Shown piece by piece: positions 12,022 to 63,813 of a DNA stretch of 64,000 nt; position 1 is the first letter of the stretch; the number at the start of each line of letters is the position of its first letter. This DNA is from Escherichia phage 310Ecol104PP, in the sequence record OR062946.1. One strand, written 5' to 3'. Both the position numbers and the translations under genes were made by a program. Below the pieces are notes generated by a model. That model was not told the DNA's origin and searched no databases. It worked only from the letters and a program-made list of their open reading frames with translations.

Positions 12022-13723
<1,702 letters not shown>

Positions 13724-13764
13724 TAAATATTATAAACTAATTAAAGCCCAGATTAGGAGAAATC

Positions 13765-16905
<3,141 letters not shown>

Positions 16906-24874: not shown

Positions 24875-24889
24875 GATATAACCTTATTA

Positions 24890-24920
24890 TGGGAGACTTC
24901 GGTCTCCCATTCTTGTTTCT
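24890..24920 (+). terminator. intrinsic terminator after gene 23
   Basis: TGGGAGAC-TTCG-GTCTCCCA hairpin followed by TTCTTGTTTCT. Confidence 0.8.
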
Positions 24921-24970
24921 ATACTACGCAATCTTAACTCGACGGTTGATGATATCACGGAAGTCAATAC

Positions 24971-24998
24971 GATTTTCTTGGATTTTCTTGGATTTTCA
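24971..24998. repeat. tandem direct repeat GATTTTCTTG, two full copies plus a partial third
   Basis: gattttcttggattttcttggattttca read directly; lies just 3' of the 64-aa minus-strand ORF. Confidence 0.8.
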
Positions 24999-25190
24999 GC
25001 CAGTTACCAGATTTGTCTTTGGTATGGGTAGAATATTCACCATTCCACCAGAAGTCAGTATGGTTTCATATTTCTTAACTAACGCATTCACTGCATTACC
25101 GTTAGGATTGGAACCATATTTTTCTACCAGGGCTTTAATGTCTTTATCAAGAGCGGAAAGAGTAGTACGAATAAAGTTTAACTTGTTCAT
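24996..25190 (-). CDS. hypothetical 64-aa protein, antisense to the late head genes, in the gene 23-24 intergenic region
   Basis: ATG preceded by GAGGAG at 6-nt spacing; GTTTAC-N18-TACTAT early-type promoter further upstream on the minus strand. Confidence 0.55.
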   Translation of the reverse strand: MNKLNFIRTTLSALDKDIKALVEKYGSNPNGNAVNALVKKYETILTSGGMVNILPIPKTNLVTG

Positions 25191-25219
25191 TTTAATCTCC
25201 TCATGTTTTTGATAGGTCT

Positions 25220-25249
25220 ATAGTAACATGTGATAACCTTGCTGTAAAC
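25220..25249 (-). promoter_or_regulatory. early-type promoter for the 64-aa antisense ORF
   Basis: Minus-strand GTTTAC - 18 nt - TACTAT. Confidence 0.4.
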
Positions 25250-25255
25250 AACTTT

Positions 25256-25263
25256 TATAAATA
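25256..25263 (+). promoter_or_regulatory. late promoter for gene 24
   Basis: Exact TATAAATA about 28 nt upstream of the ATG. Confidence 0.7.
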
Positions 25264-25291
25264 AACATATACCCTCAATAAGGAAAGCGCA

Positions 25292-28187: not shown

Positions 28188-29606
28188 TTATGGATAGGTA
28201 TAGATGATACCAGTTTCTAAAGCAGTTTTATGAATGATGTATCCATTACGCGATTCTTGAACATCAACTTCTGGATAGTCTTTCATCATCTTCTGAAGAG
28301 TGTAACGATGCAGGTAGTATTTACTATCTGGATCTTCAGTTTTCCAATCTTTACCTTCTTCAGTCATTTTTTGGATTTCATCCATAACCCACCAACCGCA
28401 CCAGATGTAAGCTGAGCTACGGTGTGGAAGAGGATGAACATAAGGTAATTCACCTTCTGGTTCTGGAGCAACTTTATCAGTTACCTGAACTTGACCTGTT
28501 GTTTTAACTGTTTTGCTATCATAATCAGTTGCTGTAACGACAGCAGTAACTTCAATAGTTTGACTTCCAACAGATGAAGTATCAACGGTGTATACATTAG
28601 TTGACCCTTCTACAGGAGAAGAATCTTTCTTCCATGAATATTCAATTTGCGCTTCTTCTGGAGCACCAGTAACATTAGCAGTAAATGTAGCCGAAGCATC
28701 TTGTTGAACGTTAATAGAAGGAGGAGTCAATGTAACCTGTGGATTCATTGTCTTCTTATTAACCGTTAATGATACTTCATTCGAAGTAACTTCCTTTTCA
28801 TTGTAATTTTCTGCAGTTACTTGGGCTACGCATTTAATTCTTTTTACTCCACTTGTAGTTGGAGTATAGCTAAATGTAGAGTTAGTTTCTCCACTAATTT
28901 GAGAATCATCTACATACCATTTATATGTAGCAGACGCTCCATCAGGTTGAGAAACTAAAGCAGCAGTAAATTGAACCGGGGTTCCAATTACTCCTGCTGG
29001 AGGACTATCAGGAGTTACTGCCAAAGTAGTTGTCTGCTCCTTTTTATTAACAGTCAGTGATACTTCATTAGAAGTAACGCTTAGTGCATCATAATCTGTC
29101 GCGGTTACTTGAGCTACACACTTAATTTTTTTAACTCCGCTTGTGGCAGGAGTGTAATTGAATGTAGCGCTAGTTGCTTCGTCCACAGGAGAACCGTCAA
29201 CGTACCATTGATACGTAGCAGATGCACCTGATGGCTGTGAAGCTAAAGCGGCAGTAAATTCAATAGCTGTTCCGATTACTCCAGCATCAGGGCTACCAGG
29301 AGTTACGGCTAAAGTAGTTGTTTGTGTCTTATTTTGAATTGTGATAGTTGTACTAATTTCAGCTGTTTCGGGACTACTATCGGCAACTTGATTTGTTGCA
29401 ACTACTTTAATAGTCTTTTGACCGGCAGGTCCTTTTAGTACATAACTAAAAGTTGCTGACGTTTCTTCCTGTTGAACATTATCTACAGTCCAAGCATATG
29501 TAATAGGTCCATCTCCAGTTTGACCACTGGGTGTAGCAGTAAACTGCTGAGTCTGATCTATAACTCCAGTAGGTGTTTTAGGAGTTATATCAACTGTAAA
29601 AGTCAT
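28188..29606 (-). CDS. hoc: Hoc outer capsid decoration protein, 472 aa, with an extra Ig-like domain
   Basis: N-terminus MTFTVDITPKTPTGVID and C-terminal capsid-binding region; two adjacent ~96-aa repeats in the middle; hairpin terminator just downstream. Confidence 0.9.
   Translation of the reverse strand: MTFTVDITPKTPTGVIDQTQQFTATPSGQTGDGPITYAWTVDNVQQEETSATFSYVLKGPAGQKTIKVVATNQVADSSPETAEISTTITIQNKTQTTTLAVTPGSPDAGVIGTAIEFTAALASQPSGASATYQWYVDGSPVDEATSATFNYTPATSGVKKIKCVAQVTATDYDALSVTSNEVSLTVNKKEQTTTLAVTPDSPPAGVIGTPVQFTAALVSQPDGASATYKWYVDDSQISGETNSTFSYTPTTSGVKRIKCVAQVTAENYNEKEVTSNEVSLTVNKKTMNPQVTLTPPSINVQQDASATFTANVTGAPEEAQIEYSWKKDSSPVEGSTNVYTVDTSSVGSQTIEVTAVVTATDYDSKTVKTTGQVQVTDKVAPEPEGELPYVHPLPHRSSAYIWCGWWVMDEIQKMTEEGKDWKTEDPDSKYYLHRYTLQKMMKDYPEVDVQESRNGYIIHKTALETGIIYTYP
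28755..29330 (-). repeat. tandem duplication (2 x ~288 bp) inside hoc encoding two adjacent Ig-like domains
   Basis: Residues ~93-188 and ~189-284 align end to end (KTQTTTLAVTPGSPDAGVIGT... vs KEQTTTLAVTPDSPPAGVIGT...). Confidence 0.8.
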
Positions 29607-30296: not shown

Positions 30297-30309
30297 AATA
30301 TTTCCTCAG

Positions 30310-30317
30310 TATAAATA
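30310..30317 (+). promoter_or_regulatory. late promoter for uvsW
   Basis: Exact TATAAATA about 30 nt upstream of the ATG. Confidence 0.7.
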
Positions 30318-30346
30318 TAGATATATTTATTACATGGTATTTAGAC

Positions 30347-42824: not shown

Positions 42825-44921
42825 TTATCCTTGAACGAACTTGTAAGGCATGTTTGTAATATCTATGCAAGACGCAATAATTCCAAGAGATGATTCTACT
42901 TTCTGTTTAATATTTGATGAAACAAATGATGCAAAGTCAACTCTGTCTTCTATTTCAATATCACCTGTCATTGCAACTACTTCGCCGGTTTCCATTAAAT
43001 GGTCTCCGTCATAGATTACCGATTCAGTGAGTTCTTCTGTGGTCATAACTTCAGCTTGAATGAGTTTTGTATTATTAGACGTGGTTCCGTCATTATTAGA
43101 AGCATCAGTTATTTTATTAACTTTAACCATCAATCCGCGCGGTAGAATAACTTCAGCTTCTGTTGCTATTCCGAGACTTCCTGGATATACAACATTAACT
43201 TTATGAGCTCCATCAATTGCCCATCCTATTTGAACTTTAACGTATTCAGGATTTTCTTTATACGCTCTTATTTCGTTTGGATTAATAGTTATTCCTTCTT
43301 CATTTTTATCAACCGTTAATTCGTTACGAGCTTCTGGTTCTAAAAGACCAATACCAGCATGTGTAATTCCAAAACGCCCAAAAATGATAGGAGTTAAAGA
43401 AGTAGATACAAAATTTCTGAAATAGAACACTTTATTTTTAACTAGTGCTTCGTATATAGGAGCAGTCATACTTTGAGCACGATAAACTGTGATGCCTTCC
43501 GGTATGCGGTCACCATTTTCAAAAGCTGAATCTAAGTTATTTATAGCAGATTCAATTTCTTTTTCACTCATTACATCATATCGTTCTGGATTGTAACGAC
43601 CTAAAAGAAGATTATTAATGTCAGTATATCCTGAACCACAATACTCTCTAATGCCGCGCTTTTGTGATGGAGTATATTTAGAACCATCACGGGCAATAGT
43701 AATATCAATCATTGGACCTGCACCAATTCCAGAAAAACTATAAATCATTCTTTTGAGGAATTTAGTTTTTGCTGCGTTCCAGGAATTTTTAGTCATTTCT
43801 TCCCAGACTTCATCTGGCTGCCCTTTACGAGTTTTATTATGTTTATCAAGCCAATTATCTTTATATTCTTCAAAGAGTTGATTAACAGCTGCTGCGTATT
43901 TCTCTAAACATTTTATTGAAGTAGTTGGTTCATTTTTAATCGCATTAAGAATTACATCTTTAATTTTTTCAGAAACTTCATTAACCTCACTTTTTGAAAA
44001 GAATTTATAGTCATAATGAAGTTCATTCGCAGTTCCTTCGGCAATAATTTTTGCTGCCTTAGTTTTAGAAGCTAATGAATTAATTCCAAGCTTCATTTCT
44101 TCTGCTTCGGGAATTAAAGGAGCGGTAGCAGGTTTATTGAAATTAGCTGCGGTAGATTCATACTTCTGGAATAATTCACTTTCAAATCTAGAAGATTCCA
44201 ATGATTGACTTTGCGCAATTGCTCTACGGGAAATTTTAACTTTAACGATTACAGCTTGGTCAGAACGTTTATCATTTTCTTGTGCAATAGATGCTGCAAT
44301 TGCCTCATTTTTAGTTACTTGAGCTCCAGTATCTTTATTGATATAAACATCGCCGACTTTCGATTCAACTTTAGTAAAGAGCTCGGTACTAATTTCCGGA
44401 ACTCCTGGAATGTCTTCTAGTGATACATTTTTGCGATGTATAAGAATATATGCATACTTTTTATCATAATCCCAGAGTTCCTTAAGAAGGACGTATCTGC
44501 CACCTGAACGACTACGGATAAGTCTATCAGCAATAACTTGAATTTGTCGAGCTTGACCAGCGGTTTTAGACTTAAGAATACGAAGCATACAAGCATCAAT
44601 TTTATACTGACGCATTGTTTGCATTGCAACAGTAAAAACTGAATTGATATAATTAATTGGGCTTGGACCGAGACCTTTTAATTTAGCAATTGAACCTTTG
44701 GCAGTTAATGTAAAAGGAACAATATGCATCATTTTATCGCCCATCTTTAAATCGCGATTAGTATCACCTCCAGATGTATAGGTGCATAAACGAAAGCCTG
44801 GTTGTTCAATTGCATCATCAACACGAACTGAAAAAATTTGCGGTATTTTCTTCTTTGGATTTAAGTTTGTAATCGGAAGAGTAGTATCTTCGTCAAATAA
44901 TTCTGTAATAAGTTCCATCAT
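42825..44921 (-). CDS. alt: Alt ADP-ribosyltransferase (698 aa), packaged internal protein
   Basis: N-terminus MMELITELFDED; motifs R (ITVYRAQ), STS (FVSTSL), EAE (TEAEVILPRG); TATAAATA-type late promoter on the minus strand about 20 nt upstream. Confidence 0.8.
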   Translation of the reverse strand: MMELITELFDEDTTLPITNLNPKKKIPQIFSVRVDDAIEQPGFRLCTYTSGGDTNRDLKMGDKMMHIVPFTLTAKGSIAKLKGLGPSPINYINSVFTVAMQTMRQYKIDACMLRILKSKTAGQARQIQVIADRLIRSRSGGRYVLLKELWDYDKKYAYILIHRKNVSLEDIPGVPEISTELFTKVESKVGDVYINKDTGAQVTKNEAIAASIAQENDKRSDQAVIVKVKISRRAIAQSQSLESSRFESELFQKYESTAANFNKPATAPLIPEAEEMKLGINSLASKTKAAKIIAEGTANELHYDYKFFSKSEVNEVSEKIKDVILNAIKNEPTTSIKCLEKYAAAVNQLFEEYKDNWLDKHNKTRKGQPDEVWEEMTKNSWNAAKTKFLKRMIYSFSGIGAGPMIDITIARDGSKYTPSQKRGIREYCGSGYTDINNLLLGRYNPERYDVMSEKEIESAINNLDSAFENGDRIPEGITVYRAQSMTAPIYEALVKNKVFYFRNFVSTSLTPIIFGRFGITHAGIGLLEPEARNELTVDKNEEGITINPNEIRAYKENPEYVKVQIGWAIDGAHKVNVVYPGSLGIATEAEVILPRGLMVKVNKITDASNNDGTTSNNTKLIQAEVMTTEELTESVIYDGDHLMETGEVVAMTGDIEIEDRVDFASFVSSNIKQKVESSLGIIASCIDITNMPYKFVQG

Positions 44922-53424: not shown

Positions 53425-54645
<1,221 letters not shown>

Positions 54646-54649
<4 letters not shown>

Positions 54650-54876: not shown

Positions 54877-55172
54877 TTACATTTATCCTCTTTTAGCTCT
54901 TGACGATAATAACATATCATAGTTTTCTGATCATGCACATATCGTTTTACATCATTAAGCCAAATACGAAATTCCTGGGAATCTTCAAATGGCATACCGA
55001 CCCAAGCTTTACCATCAATAACTTTAACTTGCCAAGATAGTTTAGCTTCGTCATATGACTTTATTTGCACAGGCCAATTAGGATGAACTGTTTCTTTCTT
55101 TACTTCTAGAGGCTTTGTCGAACAACCAACTAGAAGACCAATAGATAATATTACTGCTGATAGTTTAATCAT
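54873..55172 (-). CDS. outer-membrane spanin (o-spanin) lipoprotein
   Basis: 99 aa; signal peptide ending in lipobox LLVGC; immediately downstream of the i-spanin. Confidence 0.75.
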   Translation of the reverse strand: MIKLSAVILSIGLLVGCSTKPLEVKKETVHPNWPVQIKSYDEAKLSWQVKVIDGKAWVGMPFEDSQEFRIWLNDVKRYVHDQKTMICYYRQELKEDKCK

Positions 55173-55522
55173 TTAGAAAGGTCCTGGATGTCTTCTGCGA
55201 ACTTGTTGAAGGAGTTGTTGATTTGTTTTTCAACCAATCCTGGCTTATGAGCCACCACATCCGCCTTCTTTGCATCTTTGCGCAGTTTTTCATTTTCACG
55301 CTCAATAGCAGCAATTGCCTCACGATTTTTATTATTCATCGCATCAATATAATTATACTGAATTCGCAAATTATTTAATGCTAAGGCGTTTTCATTGGCC
55401 GTTTTTGTAATTTCTACAACAGACGTTTCTAATCTTTCAATTTTACTTTTTAAAATTAAAGAAGTTCCGCCCAATGCAATTACAATTAATAACAAGCCTG
55501 CTGTCGTATTACTTAATTGCAT
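55169..55522 (-). CDS. inner-membrane spanin (i-spanin), Rz-like
   Basis: 117 aa; N-terminal hydrophobic segment AGLLLIVIALGGTSLIL then charged helical region. Confidence 0.75.
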   Translation of the reverse strand: MQLSNTTAGLLLIVIALGGTSLILKSKIERLETSVVEITKTANENALALNNLRIQYNYIDAMNNKNREAIAAIERENEKLRKDAKKADVVAHKPGLVEKQINNSFNKFAEDIQDLSK

Positions 55523-56007
55523 AAAGTTTTAATAACCTCTATAATATCGTCTTGAGAAAGACCGTTAATTAAAATATGATGTTCAGCCGAAGATTTAGAA
55601 ATTTTAAAGCATGCCTCAACATCTTCTGCCATATCTGATGCGCTACGATTTGGATTACTAATTCCAAGACGATGTTTTCCCGTCAAAGGATTAACGATGA
55701 TGTAGCATTTACAGTTGTTAATATGAACATTAGGTTGAGTCTGATTAATGAACACATCACAATCATATTTCGCAAGCTGATTTTCTAAAAAGACTTTCAT
55801 CTCCTCAACTGCATCAGGAAGCATATCACGGGCTTGCTCAAGACGACGATTTCGATATTCTTTAATGGTCGTTTTCTTAGCTAAATCTTTCTTAAGATCG
55901 GTGATATATCCAACTCGACGATTTCCTTTAAATACAGAAATCCCATCTGTAGTATCACCGTATGCTTCAACGACCATCTCAGTAGTAATAAGCTGCAAAT
56001 CCATCAT
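55513..56007 (-). CDS. alc: Alc (host transcription termination / unfolding protein)
   Basis: 164 aa; position between pseT region and rnlA; early promoter cassette upstream. Confidence 0.65.
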   Translation of the reverse strand: MMDLQLITTEMVVEAYGDTTDGISVFKGNRRVGYITDLKKDLAKKTTIKEYRNRRLEQARDMLPDAVEEMKVFLENQLAKYDCDVFINQTQPNVHINNCKCYIIVNPLTGKHRLGISNPNRSASDMAEDVEACFKISKSSAEHHILINGLSQDDIIEVIKTLCN

Positions 56008-56009
56008 AA

Positions 56010-56065
56010 AGTCCTCATGTTATGTCAGTAAGACTACTGTAACACATCACGAGGGACTTGTAAAC
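56010..56065 (-). promoter_or_regulatory. early promoter/leader cassette, copy B, upstream of alc
   Basis: Minus-strand GTTTAC - 18 nt - TACAGT and GAGGA leader; near-identical to copy A. Confidence 0.5.
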
Positions 56066-56068
56066 AGC

Positions 56069-57655
<1,587 letters not shown>

Positions 57656-57656
<1 letters not shown>

Positions 57657-57686
57657 AATAAAATGGGCCTTGCGGCCCACTCCTTA
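57656..57686 (-). promoter_or_regulatory. denA translation initiation region: Shine-Dalgarno, hairpin, then AUG
   Basis: AAGGAG (overlapping the nrdB stop), hairpin GGGCC-GCAA-GGCCC, then TTTTATT-ATG. Confidence 0.5.
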
Positions 57687-58853
57687 AAAATATTTTTTAA
57701 AACTCATCATAACTTTATCATCAACGTCATTATCAATCTGTGCTACAAGATAAGATGACAGTTCTACTTCTTGCGGTGCAGATTGAACATTATCAGAATT
57801 AAGATATTCACGAATCCAAGGATACGGATGTTTAACCGGAGCATCAGTAATTGGGCATGGAAGACCACACTGTTTCATACGAGATACAGTTAAGTAATCA
57901 ATAAAGCTCCACATGCTATTTGTATTTAATCCAGGAACATCGCCATCTTTAAATAAATGAACTGCCCAGTCTTTTTCTTGACGGTTAACTTCCATGAAAA
58001 TATCAACTGCTTCTTGTTCACACTCTTGAGCAATTTTAACCCATTCATCACCATCAGTGCCAAGTTGAAGTTGACGAATAATATATTGGGTGCCTTTAAG
58101 GTGAAGCTGCTCATCACGTGCAATGAACTTCATAATCTTGGCATTACCTTCCATGATTTCCATGTTCTTATGGAAGTTAAAGGTACATGCGAAAGATACA
58201 TAAAAACGAATAGCTTCCAATGCGTTGATTACGTGCAGGCAGAGGTAAAGAGATTTCATTAGTGCTCGTTTAGTACATTCAACAACTTTGCCTAGCTCTT
58301 CTTTACGAAATCCTTCTGATAAAATTCCTTCATAATCTTCAACCGCATTCTGATATTCACGAGTCTTAACTAGAACGTCATCATAATAACGACCAATAGA
58401 TTCAGCACGTTTCATGATAGCTTTATCTAATACAATCTCATCAAATACCTTTGATGGATCAGTATAAAGATTTCGCATGATATGAGTATATGAACGACTG
58501 TGAATAGTTTCGCTAAAAGTCCATGTAGCAACCCATGTATCAAGGCTTGGATCTGAAATTAATGACATAAGTACAGCAGACGGTGCACGACCCTGAATGC
58601 TATCTAGAAGTGATTGATACTTCAGGTTATTAGTAAAAATATCTTGCTGATACTGAGGAAGCTTGTTAAATTGTGCAGCATCCATCATCAAGTTTACTTC
58701 TTCAGGACGCCAGAAAAATGATAATTGCTTTTCGGTTAAATCTTCAAAAACTTTATGGCGTTGAATATCATAACGCGCAATACCAAGACCTGAACCGAAG
58801 AACATAGGTTCTTTTAAAACATCAACTGGATTTGTATTAAAAACTGTGCTCAT
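57684..58853 (-). CDS. nrdB: ribonucleotide reductase small subunit, uninterrupted
   Basis: 389 aa continuous ORF; diiron motifs FSETIHSRSY and RDEQLHLKG. Confidence 0.95.
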   Translation of the reverse strand: MSTVFNTNPVDVLKEPMFFGSGLGIARYDIQRHKVFEDLTEKQLSFFWRPEEVNLMMDAAQFNKLPQYQQDIFTNNLKYQSLLDSIQGRAPSAVLMSLISDPSLDTWVATWTFSETIHSRSYTHIMRNLYTDPSKVFDEIVLDKAIMKRAESIGRYYDDVLVKTREYQNAVEDYEGILSEGFRKEELGKVVECTKRALMKSLYLCLHVINALEAIRFYVSFACTFNFHKNMEIMEGNAKIMKFIARDEQLHLKGTQYIIRQLQLGTDGDEWVKIAQECEQEAVDIFMEVNRQEKDWAVHLFKDGDVPGLNTNSMWSFIDYLTVSRMKQCGLPCPITDAPVKHPYPWIREYLNSDNVQSAPQEVELSSYLVAQIDNDVDDKVMMSFKKYF

Positions 58854-58880
58854 AAATTTTCCGCTTAGTTAATAGATAGT

Positions 58881-58898
58881 GACTCGTCCGTGAGTCAA
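58881..58898 (-). other. hairpin in the short nrdA-nrdB intergenic region
   Basis: TGACTC-GTCCGT-GAGTCA inverted repeat. Confidence 0.45.
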
Positions 58899-58904
58899 AT
58901 TATA

Positions 58905-61169
58905 TCATAATTTACAGGATGAACAATCTTCAGCTTTTGGAGTTTCTATTTCATAATCATCAGTACCAGAACCATCGCGGGTATTATGATAATAGAAATT
59001 TTTTCCGCCAAAATACCAAAAATACAAAAGGTCATCAATCATTATTGACATTGGAACCTTTCCTTTTGGAAAAATCTGCGGGTCATAATATGTATTCGCT
59101 GAAGCTGATTGACATACCCATTTCAGCATAATAGCTACCTGCGTAAGATAAGGTTTATTACCTTTCTTAGCTAATTTCCACGTATAATCATAGAGGTCTA
59201 TGTTATGCTCAATATTGGGCACGACTTGATTAAAGGAACCCTCTTTTGATTCTTTAACAGAGACTGGTCCACGTGGAGGCTCGATACCGTTTGTACTGTT
59301 AGAAACTTGGGAAGATGACTCACATGGCATAAGTGCTGATAATGTGCTATTACGGATGCCAAAGAGCTTAAGGTCTTCCCGCAGCGACGACCAGTCACAA
59401 ACGTATTTTGGAGCTGCGATTTGGTCAATCTTTTTATTGTACCAGTCGATAGGTAATTCGCCTCGAGACCAACGAGTGTCTGAATAATATTCGCAAGGTC
59501 CTTTTTCTTTGGCGAGCTTAATGGATGCTTTAATGAGTCCATACTGTAATCTCTCAAATAGTTCATGTGTTAAATCGTTAGCATCTTCATAAGAAGCAAA
59601 GTTACTTGCCAGCCAAGCTGCATAGTTGGTAACACCTACGCCAAGGTTTCGACGCTTTTTAGCTTTTTCTGCTTCAGGAACTGGATATCCTTGGTAATCC
59701 AAAAGATTATCAAGAGCACGAACTTGAACTTCTGCCAATTCATTAATTTTATCTTGGTCTTGCCAGTCAAAATTATCTAGTACGAATGCAGAGAGAGTAC
59801 ACAATCCAATTTCAGCATCAGGACTATTCACATCATTTGTTGGAATAGCAATTTCACAGCACAAGTTGCTCTGACGAATAGGTGCCTTTTCACGAATAAA
59901 CGGAGTATAGTTATTCGTATTATCAATGAATTGTACATAAATCCTTGCTGTTCCTGAGCGTTCAGTCATGAGCAATTCAAATAGTTCACGGGCTTTAATA
60001 CGCTTTTTACGAATATTAGGGTCTTTTTCTGCTGCTTCGTATAATTCACGGAAACGGTCTTGGTCTTTAAAATAAGAATAATAAAGCTCGCCACCCATTT
60101 CATGCGGACTGAACAAAGTAATGTAATCGTTCTTTCCGAATCGTTCCATCATCAAATCATTCAGCTGAACACCATAATCCATATGACGAATGCGGTTTTC
60201 TTCTACGCCTTTGTTATTTTTCAAAACGAGAAGATTTTCAACTTCCAAATGCCAAATAGGATAATAAGCAGTAGCTGCGCCGCCACGAATTCCACCCTGT
60301 GAGCATGATTTAACTGCAGTCTGAAAATGTTTCCAAAAAGGAATAACACCAGTATGACGTACTTCACCCATGCCAATCTTAGAACCTTCGGCACGAATCA
60401 TACCAACGTTAATACCAATTCCAGCGCGTTTAGAGATATATTCAACAATTGAAGCAGAAGCCTTATTGATAGACTTCAGTGAATCACCTGCCTCAATAAC
60501 AACACATGAACTAAACTGTCGAGTCGGAGTACGACAACCAGCCATAATAGGAGTTGGTAATGAAATCTGTCGAGTAGATACTGCTTCATAAAAACGAATA
60601 ACATGTTTTAATCTATCAACAGGTTCATCTTGATGCAGTGCCATTCCAATAGCCATAAATGCAAACTGTGGAGTTTCATAAATTTGACCAGTGGTTTTAT
60701 CTTTAACTAAATATTTTTCTTTTAATTGCATCGCCCCGGAATAAGTAAATTCCATATCCCGTTCGTGCTTAATTTTTGATTCTAAAAATGTAATTTCTTC
60801 TGCTGAATATTTTGACAATAATTCAGGGTCGTATTTACCTGCATTTACACAGTAAGAAATATGGTCAATAAATGAACGTGGTTCATACTGCCCATAAACA
60901 TGCTTACGAAGAGCAAACATTAAACAGCGTGCAGCTACATATTGATAATCAGGTTCTTCAACCGAAATAGAATTCGCAGCAGCCTTAATGACAATAGTCT
61001 GAATATCATCAGTTGTCATTCCATCACGGAGATAAGATTTAATATTTTCATATAATTCATAAGGATCTACTGATGTTCCCTCAGCTGCCCAAGATAAAAC
61101 TTTAATAATTTTTTGTGGGTCAAAGCTCTGAGAAACACCACTACTTTTGATAACATTAATTAATTGCAT
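58905..61169 (-). CDS. nrdA: ribonucleotide reductase large subunit
   Basis: 754 aa; active-site segment SNLCCEIA. Confidence 0.95.
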   Translation of the reverse strand: MQLINVIKSSGVSQSFDPQKIIKVLSWAAEGTSVDPYELYENIKSYLRDGMTTDDIQTIVIKAAANSISVEEPDYQYVAARCLMFALRKHVYGQYEPRSFIDHISYCVNAGKYDPELLSKYSAEEITFLESKIKHERDMEFTYSGAMQLKEKYLVKDKTTGQIYETPQFAFMAIGMALHQDEPVDRLKHVIRFYEAVSTRQISLPTPIMAGCRTPTRQFSSCVVIEAGDSLKSINKASASIVEYISKRAGIGINVGMIRAEGSKIGMGEVRHTGVIPFWKHFQTAVKSCSQGGIRGGAATAYYPIWHLEVENLLVLKNNKGVEENRIRHMDYGVQLNDLMMERFGKNDYITLFSPHEMGGELYYSYFKDQDRFRELYEAAEKDPNIRKKRIKARELFELLMTERSGTARIYVQFIDNTNNYTPFIREKAPIRQSNLCCEIAIPTNDVNSPDAEIGLCTLSAFVLDNFDWQDQDKINELAEVQVRALDNLLDYQGYPVPEAEKAKKRRNLGVGVTNYAAWLASNFASYEDANDLTHELFERLQYGLIKASIKLAKEKGPCEYYSDTRWSRGELPIDWYNKKIDQIAAPKYVCDWSSLREDLKLFGIRNSTLSALMPCESSSQVSNSTNGIEPPRGPVSVKESKEGSFNQVVPNIEHNIDLYDYTWKLAKKGNKPYLTQVAIMLKWVCQSASANTYYDPQIFPKGKVPMSIMIDDLLYFWYFGGKNFYYHNTRDGSGTDDYEIETPKAEDCSSCKL

Positions 61170-61486
61170 AAGTCCTCAACTTGAAAATCGTCTTTAAACA
61201 ATCGGTTAACTATATGAGCTATTATATCACCATGACACGGCTTTGGTTTACATGTGCATCCTAGCCTCATTCCACGTAAAGGCTCTAAATGTGCTTTAGT
61301 TATTTCTCCGGATTTAATTCGACGTATAAAATCTTTTTTGAATAATTCAATGGCAGCCTCCCGGCTGCCAGCATCTTTACCGACGTAATTTCCCCAAAAT
61401 GTACCGCGGTGAATATTAACATCAAAGTCGGATTTGTATTTATTCACTACCCGGCATAGACGGCCCACGCTGGAATAATTCGTCAT
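61160..61486 (-). CDS. hypothetical Cys/His-motif protein (nrdA.1-like)
   Basis: 108 aa; motif [17 protein letters not shown]. Confidence 0.6.
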
Positions 61487-61703
61487 ATTGTTTTTCCGTT
61501 AAAACAGTAATATCGTAGTAACAGTCAGAAGAAGTTTTAACTGTGGAAATTTTATTATCAAAATACTCACGAGTCATTTTATGAGTATAATATTTTTTAC
61601 CATAAATGATAATAGGCTGTTCTGGTCCTGGAACTTCTAACTCGCTTGGGTTAGGAAGTGTAAAAAGAACAACGCCAGAAGTATCTTTAAATCGTAAAAT
61701 CAT
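61440..61703 (-). CDS. hypothetical protein (nrdA.2-like)
   Basis: 87 aa ORF overlapping the neighbour's start. Confidence 0.55.
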
Positions 61704-62560
61704 ATTGCCATTTTCCCTTTAATTGCTGGATGCGATTCATAATTTTCAAGGATAAAATCTTTCGGTTTCATGTATTCAGTTAACCAGTAAAGCTGTGTTT
61801 CGGTGTCACAATTTCCAAACTCTATAGGCCAATCAATTTTAAGTTCACACAGTTCTTTAGGCTCACGACGTAAAATTTCTTTACATTGCTCAGTATGATT
61901 CATATAGATGTGAGTATTACCACCAGAAAATATCAAATCTCCTGGGATAAGATTACACATCTTAGCCACAATATGCGCCAAGGCAGCGTACGAGGCAATG
62001 TTGAATGGCAAGCCCAAGAAAACATCTACACTTCTTTGGTACCATTGTAAATCAAGATAACCATTACGCACATTAAACTGATAGAACATATGACAGGGCG
62101 GTAATGCCATTTGATTGATTTCAGCTGGATTCCATGCTGAAACGATTTGACGTCGATCAGTTGGTAATTTTTTAATACGATCAATAGTTTCAACTAATTG
62201 ATCCACACCACCGAAATCACGCCATTGTTTACCGTATATAGGACCAAGTTCACCACTATGATATCCTAGGTCTTTAGCCTGGTTTTCATAGTTATCGTCC
62301 CAAATAGTTTTACCTTGAATAAGACTACCATGTGTGCGAAGACGTAAATCATTAACATTGGTAGAACCGGAAATAAACCATAGAAGCTCAGCAATGCATG
62401 CATTCCAGGCGAACTTCTTAGTTGTTACTGCAGGAAAACCTTTAGTTAAATCCCAGCGTAATTTAGTACCGAACAAAGCAATTGTTCCTGTGCCTGTTCG
62501 GTCATCGGTTTCATAGCCATTTTCAAAAATGTCTTTAATTAAATCTTGGTATTGTTTCAT
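61700..62560 (-). CDS. td: thymidylate synthase, uninterrupted
   Basis: 286 aa continuous ORF; active-site segment [12 protein letters not shown]. Confidence 0.95.
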
Positions 62561-62604
62561 TTAGTACCTTATATAAATTATAATACATTTTATGAAGCTA
62601 ATAA

Positions 62605-62964
62605 TCAATACGGTTTAGCATCAAATTTTCTTTCGATTTCAGGAGTGAAATATAATTCTTTACCACGTTTGGAAAAACGACCAATAATATGATAATTATT
62701 CTCATCAAACGTGATATTACCAATATCCATAGCTTTCAACCAAATATCGATATTTCTATCTAGTTTTATATCAAAATTCCAATACGGAGAACTATTACCA
62801 AAAATACTACAAGCGGATTCAGTGAAACAACTGCTATAAATCTTGTCTTTAGGAACTACTAATTGATAGACGCCTTTAATAAACTGAGGACCCTGCCATT
62901 TTGGTTGTTTCGCGTCTTTTTCTAATAGAATAGGGTAATAATTAAAATTCATATTTTCCGCCAC
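62605..62964 (-). CDS. hypothetical 119-aa protein located between frd and td
   Basis: Complete ORF MAENMNFNYYPILLEKDAKQPKWQGPQF...; no motif recognised. Confidence 0.6.
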   Translation of the reverse strand: MAENMNFNYYPILLEKDAKQPKWQGPQFIKGVYQLVVPKDKIYSSCFTESACSIFGNSSPYWNFDIKLDRNIDIWLKAMDIGNITFDENNYHIIGRFSKRGKELYFTPEIERKFDAKPY

Positions 62965-62972
62965 GTGTTATT

Positions 62973-63802
<830 letters not shown>

Positions 63803-63813
63803 ATTATCTCCTA

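Follow-up and report, generated by a model that had tools for sequence, protein, structure and literature searches.

The td-nrdB region of phage 310Ecol104PP

The DNA analysed here, referred to as the window, is a 64-kb stretch of Escherichia phage 310Ecol104PP (OR062946.1), which by BLAST corresponds to 81.6-146 kb of T4, from gene 6 to frd.1. Its source is very probably a Tequatrovirus. The 9 kb surrounding td and nrdB are matched by 906 phage records in a BLAST search, the closest being Shigella phage KRT47 (Tequatrovirus ime09), 97.6% identical across the full length, followed, as the next-best distinct genome, by KAW1E185 at 97.7%. The genes and spacers considered below are these:

61700..62560, minus strand: td (thymidylate synthase), uninterrupted, 286 aa
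61440..61703, minus strand: nrdA.2 homologue (DUF5496), its start overlapping the td stop
61160..61486, minus strand: nrdA.1 homologue (DUF4326)
58905..61169, minus strand: nrdA, 754 aa
58854..58904, minus strand: nrdA-nrdB spacer, the empty mobE site, 51 nt from nrdA stop to nrdB start
57684..58853, minus strand: nrdB, uninterrupted, 389 aa
24875..25291, strand not given: spacer between genes 23 and 24 without segD, 417 nt; the T4 equivalent holds segD
30297..30346, strand not given: inh-uvsW spacer without segE, 50 nt; the T4 equivalent holds segE

As judged from ORF translations and alignment, td and nrdB are both intact, in-frame reading frames that are collinear with the spliced T4 genes. 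A first-pass annotation had described the two genes as continuous (286 aa and 389 aa) and had put the gap between nrdB and nrdA at about 50 bp, with no endonuclease gene inside it. Both descriptions are accurate, the exact gap being 51 nt.

Homing elements of T4 absent from the window

T4 has the same gene order as the window, but carries five endonuclease genes and two introns across the equivalent region, where the window has none. In the T4 reference (NC_000866.4), td is annotated as a two-piece join with I-TevI inside, nrdB as a two-piece join with I-TevIII inside, and nrdB.1 and mobE sit between nrdA and nrdB. The introns, I-TevI, I-TevIII and mobE had been ascribed to T4 in the first-pass annotation, and the reference indeed carries all of them. 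Gene-level alignment resolves the difference into discrete T4-only blocks, one of 1017 nt after td nt 549 and one of 598 nt after nt 664 of T4 nrdB (nt 667 of the window gene), while an nrdB.1/mobE block of 696 nt stands where the window has its 51-nt spacer. The absence of segD and segE, also part of the earlier description, is evident from the spacers in which they lie in T4: that between genes 23 and 24 measures 417 nt in the window versus 812 nt in T4, and that between inh and uvsW 50 nt versus 669 nt. Compared end to end with the spliced T4 products, Td is 84.6%, NrdB 91.3% and NrdA 98.5% identical.

Searches for displaced or degraded elements were negative. Eleven endonuclease proteins of the Seg, Mob, I-Tev and Hef-position (nrdA-nrdB site) kinds, queried by tblastn against the whole window, returned noise only (E of at least 0.3), and alignment of the window td and nrdB to T4 revealed no intron-sized insertion relative to the spliced genes. 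An Rfam scan at gathering thresholds reported no group I intron in the window, but as it reported none in the T4 two-intron locus that served as positive control either, it carries no weight. Small ORFs that the window has and T4 lacks (24996-25190, 54329-54649, 62605-62964 and 63557-63802) were considered as endonuclease remnants and rejected. None of the four has a Pfam match, their PHROGs matches are solely to families of unknown function, and a 64-aa ORF among them has no similarity to SegD.

Sequence determinants at the unoccupied sites

Alignment of the window to T4, as proposed in the first-pass annotation, placed the empty intron insertion sites between 62012 and 62011 in td and between 58187 and 58186 in nrdB, with the putative target determinants kept. 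The relevant positions are as follows:

62011..62012, minus strand: empty td intron insertion site, between td nt 549 and 550, GGC/TTG
62001..62038, minus strand: equivalent of the 38-bp I-TevI homing site, td nt 523-560, identical to T4 at 28 of 38 positions
58186..58187, minus strand: empty nrdB intron insertion site, between nrdB nt 667 and 668, GCAT/GTAC
58190..58215, minus strand: I-TevIII site region, cut positions -14/-16 at about 58200-58203, unchanged
58264..58357, minus strand: nrdB hypervariable patch, nt about 497-590, 40-60% identical between allele types
58698..58740, minus strand: MobE target equivalent in nrdB, comprising the nt 114-131 block and the FFWRPEE codons (nt 136-156)

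I-TevI has a 38-bp site, with its cuts 23 and 25 nt upstream of the insertion point and a preference for 5'-CNNNG-3' (PMC2988022). In the window td this motif is kept as CAAAG (62034-62038, -27 to -23, td nt 523-527), the critical C (-27) and G (-23) both being in place at the natural distance. The primary binding region, 20 bp centred on the insertion site, is identical to T4 at 15 positions, the same level of identity as that of the I-TevI operator; the enzyme tolerates substitutions and binds this 15/20 operator with equal affinity (PMC2988022). Around the site, 15 of 54 nt differ from T4, all of them synonymously, and 10 of these fall inside the 38-bp site. Cutting could be less efficient here, since the site differs from that of T4 at 10 of its 38 positions. 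These differences are no denser than the background, because td as a whole is only about 83% identical to T4; the window gene belongs to an allele class that differs to this extent (DNA level, whole gene) from the class of T2, T4 and T6. An apparent drop in identity to T4 beginning exactly at the td intron site was rejected as an artefact of the splitting of BLAST matches, finer alignment showing the whole-gene allele class instead.

From -26 to +40 around its insertion site, the window nrdB is identical to the intron-deleted T4 sequence at all positions except -2 and -5, and I-TevIII is known to cut at -14 and -16 (PMC1865063). Upstream of the insertion site, the drop in identity to T4 is real, as finer alignment confirms.

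The free-standing endonuclease MobE nicks T2 DNA at nrdB nt 122-126, with two of the nicks in codon 42, which is AAG in all mobE-lacking phages; the polymorphism that discriminates lies in nt 114-131, and binding has been proposed to involve the FFWRPEE codons (PMC2790892). In the window the nick-site positions correspond to 58728-58732 and codon 42 is AAG. Over nt 114-131 the window agrees with T2 at 17 of 18 positions and with T4 at nine, and the FFWRPEE codons at nt 136-156 are present, the same as in T2.

Phages that lack mobE have no intrinsic terminator in the nrdA-nrdB spacer (PMC2790892), and none was found in the spacer of the window, which has a 6-bp hairpin at 58880-58897 whose tail, CTATCTATTA, is without a T-run. 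A middle promoter has been placed at the nrdA end or in the spacer of mobE-lacking phages (PMC2790892). A TATAAT hexamer directly follows the nrdA stop of the window; a sigma-70 consensus scan gave sites no more numerous than in shuffled sequence and supports no specific promoter. Presumably, transcription of nrdB starts at a promoter located at the end of nrdA or in the spacer.

To judge from sequence, then, the features used by the endonucleases persist at the empty sites, namely the CAAAG motif for I-TevI, nt 114-131 and the AAG codon for MobE, and the cut positions for I-TevIII. They are probably susceptible targets, and we infer that these exact sequences would be cut.

Occupied counterparts and natural conversion tracts

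Phage vB_EcoM_KAW1E185 (NC_054922) is a mobE-filled sister of the window, with flanks 97-100% identical to it and with the same td allele and the same 3' part of nrdB, but where the window has its 51-nt spacer it carries a 642-nt mobE. Over 56650-58450 the two sequences are 100% identical, and identity falls to 76-88% across the opening 200 nt of nrdB. We scored KAW1E185 as donor-type or window-type wherever the window and T6 have different bases. The 35 such sites in nrdB nt 6-129 are donor-type with a single exception; from nt 141 the sequence is window-type save for a few patchy sites up to nt 309, and it is window-type at 107/107 sites from nt 342 on. In nrdA, donor-type bases are confined to the final five sites, nt 2248-2264. 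The uninterrupted donor tract thus ends between nrdB nt 129 and 141, adjoining the mapped nick, as would be expected of repair from a break at nt 122-126.

For the td intron, chimeric probes were built in which window-type exon is joined to an end of the T4 intron. With the 5' junction probe, 13 records gave at least 95% identity, U5, G8 and vB_EcoM_112 among them, and the 3' junction probe identified about 31 records that combine window-type td exon with the intron. Among the roughly 117 records with window-type exon 1, about 13 carry the intron; td introns are much more frequent on T4-type than on window-type exon 1, and long conversion tracts in exon I would give the same skew in occupancy.

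Three of the filled phages, U5, G8 and Pu-Krd-SF4, have a 1016-nt td intron with I-TevI that is absent from the window, and were classified as window-type or T4-type at 121 informative td sites. In the case of U5 (AY262155), td is window-type at 112 of these, and 19 of 861 positions differ from the window over the whole gene. The T4-type tracts are as follows:

U5: nt 522-550, about 30 nt into exon 1
G8: nt 505-552, about 48 nt into exon 1
Pu-Krd-SF4: about nt 300-552, about 250 nt into exon 1

All three begin at or upstream of the I-TevI cut and end at +3 in exon 2, the sequence being window-type again from +6. This pattern matches the known bias of co-conversion toward exon I. A corresponding chimeric probe for nrdB, with the exon-1/patch type of the window joined to the nrdB intron, had no counterpart in 50,697 phage records, its best full-length matches being at most 86.6% identical.

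Prevalence of the empty configuration

A 171-nt probe across nrdA, the spacer and nrdB was used to survey the junction, which was scored as contiguous when at least 80% of the probe was covered. By this measure, 373 of the 495 phage records that match the probe have a contiguous junction. The T4 td intron query is covered to at least 80% in 197 records, besides some tens of shortened, ORF-less forms, and the same threshold yields 118 records for the T4 nrdB intron and 20 for the nrdB.1/mobE block. At any length the latter block matches 143 records, and the matches listed among these are mostly partial mobE variants.

The empty configuration is the common, majority, T2-like state of T4 relatives. 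The first-pass annotation had implied that empty sites are unusual, which is not borne out; the finding is an ordinary one, because 373 of the 495 junctions are contiguous and because a review already names T4 as the outlier (PMC2988022).

Interpretation

The best explanation, which we hold with considerable confidence, is that td, nrdB and the nrdA-nrdB junction of the window are target alleles left unoccupied by three known homing systems, and that this T2-like state is the common one among relatives. These systems are the td intron with I-TevI, the nrdB intron with I-TevIII, and free-standing MobE. There is no functional gap, Td and NrdB being made from continuous genes. On co-infection with an element-bearing phage, cleavage at the sites of the window would be the most likely outcome, MobE producing a nick, and donor-templated repair would bring in the element along with a short donor stretch from the cut to the insertion point.

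A different history is that introns and/or mobE were ancestral and were removed precisely by recombination with the empty alleles of co-infecting phages. Such loss would accord with the cycle of gain, decay and loss that is the accepted model for homing endonuclease genes (PMC2988022); the region is, moreover, visibly mosaic between close relatives, in which decayed elements occur as ORF-less td introns and truncated I-TevIII. However, the window has no donor-type marker tracts at td nt 522-552, nrdB nt 6-129 or nrdA nt 2248-2264, and at these markers it agrees with empty phages, with KRT47 at all three, with T2 in nrdA and nrdB, and with KAW1E185 in td. The missing donor marks argue only weakly against loss, because loss by recombination would erase them as well, and never-invaded and lost-by-recombination histories look alike in sequence. 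On balance, we regard secondary loss as unlikely. That the assembly or consensus simply collapsed the introns can be given almost no credence, given that hundreds of independent genomes have the same contiguous junctions and that the ORFs are intact and in frame.

The td allele itself invites another reading, in which synonymous recoding has made it a target partly resistant to I-TevI, and selection against invasion keeps the intron out. The wholly synonymous nature of the 15 differences among 54 nt, 10 of them in the 38-bp site, and the lower intron occupancy of window-type relative to T4-type exon 1 are points in its favour. Yet the critical C and G keep their natural spacing, I-TevI is tolerant of substitutions and has equal affinity for a 15/20 operator (PMC2988022), and the local differences are no denser than those of a gene about 83% identical to T4 throughout. 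Otherwise window-type exons do carry the intron, in 13 records at the 5' junction and about 31 at the 3' junction. This reading therefore seems quite improbable to us. There is likewise a slim chance that the window-type td and nrdB alleles together could be selected for reduced susceptibility to homing. If so, the backbone would be endonuclease-poor through resisting invasion and not through chance history. The idea of reduced susceptibility draws on the 10 synonymous changes in the 38-bp site and on the nrdB patch never seen with an intron.

The value of the locus is modest. It supplies a reference empty haplotype, and pairing it with near-identical filled phages reveals natural conversion tracts. 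The usefulness of empty sites for reconstructing homing events, anticipated in the first-pass annotation, was realised with KAW1E185, U5, G8 and Pu-Krd-SF4. The natural tracts start from the MobE nick as mapped by experiment and from the I-TevI cut site, with hardly any extension into td exon 2, and in this respect field isolates corroborate laboratory findings on homing tracts.

Comparison with T2 and T6

The backbone had earlier been likened to T2 or T6; the T2 part of this comparison stands, with all five sites empty in T2, and the T6 part does not. T6 (AP018814), unlike the window, has a SegD 100% identical and a SegE 99.5% identical to those of T4, a Mob-like gene adjoining uvsW, a 213-aa MobE, and a td intron with I-TevI (100%). 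T2 (AP018813) is collinear with window positions 55000-63812 in one single alignment, and its nrdA-nrdB spacer, also 51 nt, is identical to that of the window at 49 positions. Like the window, T2 has an intronless td (286 aa) and an intronless nrdB, lacks segD and segE, and has an inh-uvsW spacer of 50 nt. It carries the same MobE target haplotype, and shares with the window two alt paralogues and an extra ORF between frd and td. A tblastn search of the equivalent T2 region (68 kb, gene 6 to beyond frd) gave no endonuclease match.

The two phages are not identical in every respect. T2 td is of the T4 allele class, about 83% identical to that of the window, T2 NrdB has 392 aa and the nrdB hypervariable patch is of another type, and the spacer between genes 23 and 24 is 83 nt in T2 versus 417 nt in the window. 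That most relatives of T4 are without its introns and free-standing endonucleases is already known, and T2, the recipient phage in the classical T4 x T2 crosses on homing and marker exclusion, is the textbook empty recipient (PMC2988022, PMC2790892). The backbone of the window is T2-like and not T6-like.

Sequence variability within nrdB and td

Two short stretches, one in nrdB and one in td, diverge strongly between phages. Within nrdB, a patch of ~95 nt (window 58264-58357, about nt 497-590 of the gene) shares only 40-60% identity among the window, T2, T4, T6 and G8 types, whereas the regions flanking it are >90% identical among the same types. The patch lies 75-170 nt upstream of the nrdB intron site. 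A search of phage records with a chimeric probe, made of window-type nrdB exon 1 and the intron, found no record that combines the patch type of the window with an nrdB intron.

The 3' end of td behaves similarly. Its last 47 codons (nt 721-861, window 61700-61840) occur in at least three strongly divergent versions, with 48-63% DNA identity. The version in the window is also found in KRT47, KAW1E185 and 235Ecol030PP, while T2 and T4 share a second and T6 and ECML-134 a third. This pattern points to the td/nrdA.2 junction as a recombination hot spot.

Homing elements in the comparison records

As a control, the whole T4 locus (L001) was scanned with Rfam release 15 at gathering thresholds, which reported neither the td nor the nrdB group I intron of T4. 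A negative Rfam scan is therefore no ground for excluding ORF-bearing phage introns.

Between nrdA and nrdB, G8 carries a gene annotated as a homing endonuclease (530 aa, 13440-15032 of the G8 locus L012). This protein is much larger than MobE, has no similar sequence anywhere in the window and, judging by the literature, could be of the hef type described for U5. MobE itself is a single 213-aa ORF in T6 and KAW1E185; in the T4 RefSeq record (NC_000866, L001 7717-8417) it appears as two genes, mobE with 141 aa and nrdB.1 with 83 aa, in a block that is 2 nt shorter in other T4 records. The T6 record AP018814 (loci L005 and L014) has annotation quirks as well: its I-TevI gene goes under the name 'RNA polymerase sigma factor for late transcription', and its SegE gene under 'tail tape measure protein'.

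Gene content relative to T2, T4 and T6

Further window features considered in the comparison (coordinates, strand, description)
24996-25190, -, 64-aa ORF inside the gene 23-24 spacer; matches phrog_6003, N-terminal half only
28188-29606, -, hoc homologue, 472 aa
40764-42821, -, full-length alt paralogue, one of a tandem pair (685 and 698 aa)
42825-44921, -, full-length alt paralogue, the other of the pair
54329-54649, -, 106-aa ORF between pseT and pseT.1; phrog_2364; absent from T4
62605-62964, -, 119-aa ORF with GTG start between frd and td; phrog_1928
63557-63802, -, 81-aa ORF between frd and frd.1; phrog_3183; absent from T4

The gene 23-24 spacer (24875-25291) is 417 nt long. In T2 this spacer measures 83 nt and in T4, where it includes segD, 812 nt. 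The 64-aa ORF in the window's spacer shows no similarity to SegD and may be a remnant of another, distinct insert. Neither the 106-aa nor the 81-aa ORF has any endonuclease likeness. The hoc homologue is longer than T4 hoc (376 aa), and the overlap pattern of the BLAST pieces suggests an additional repeated domain.

T2, like the window, has two full copies of alt, whereas T4 has a single alt gene plus the duplication remnants alt.-1 and alt.-2. The frd-td ORF, annotated at 115 aa in KRT47 and without a match in a Pfam search, is common to T2, T6, G8, KRT47 and the window; T4 lacks it, its frd and td overlapping instead. On the sequences compared, T4 is thus the exception at this junction too.
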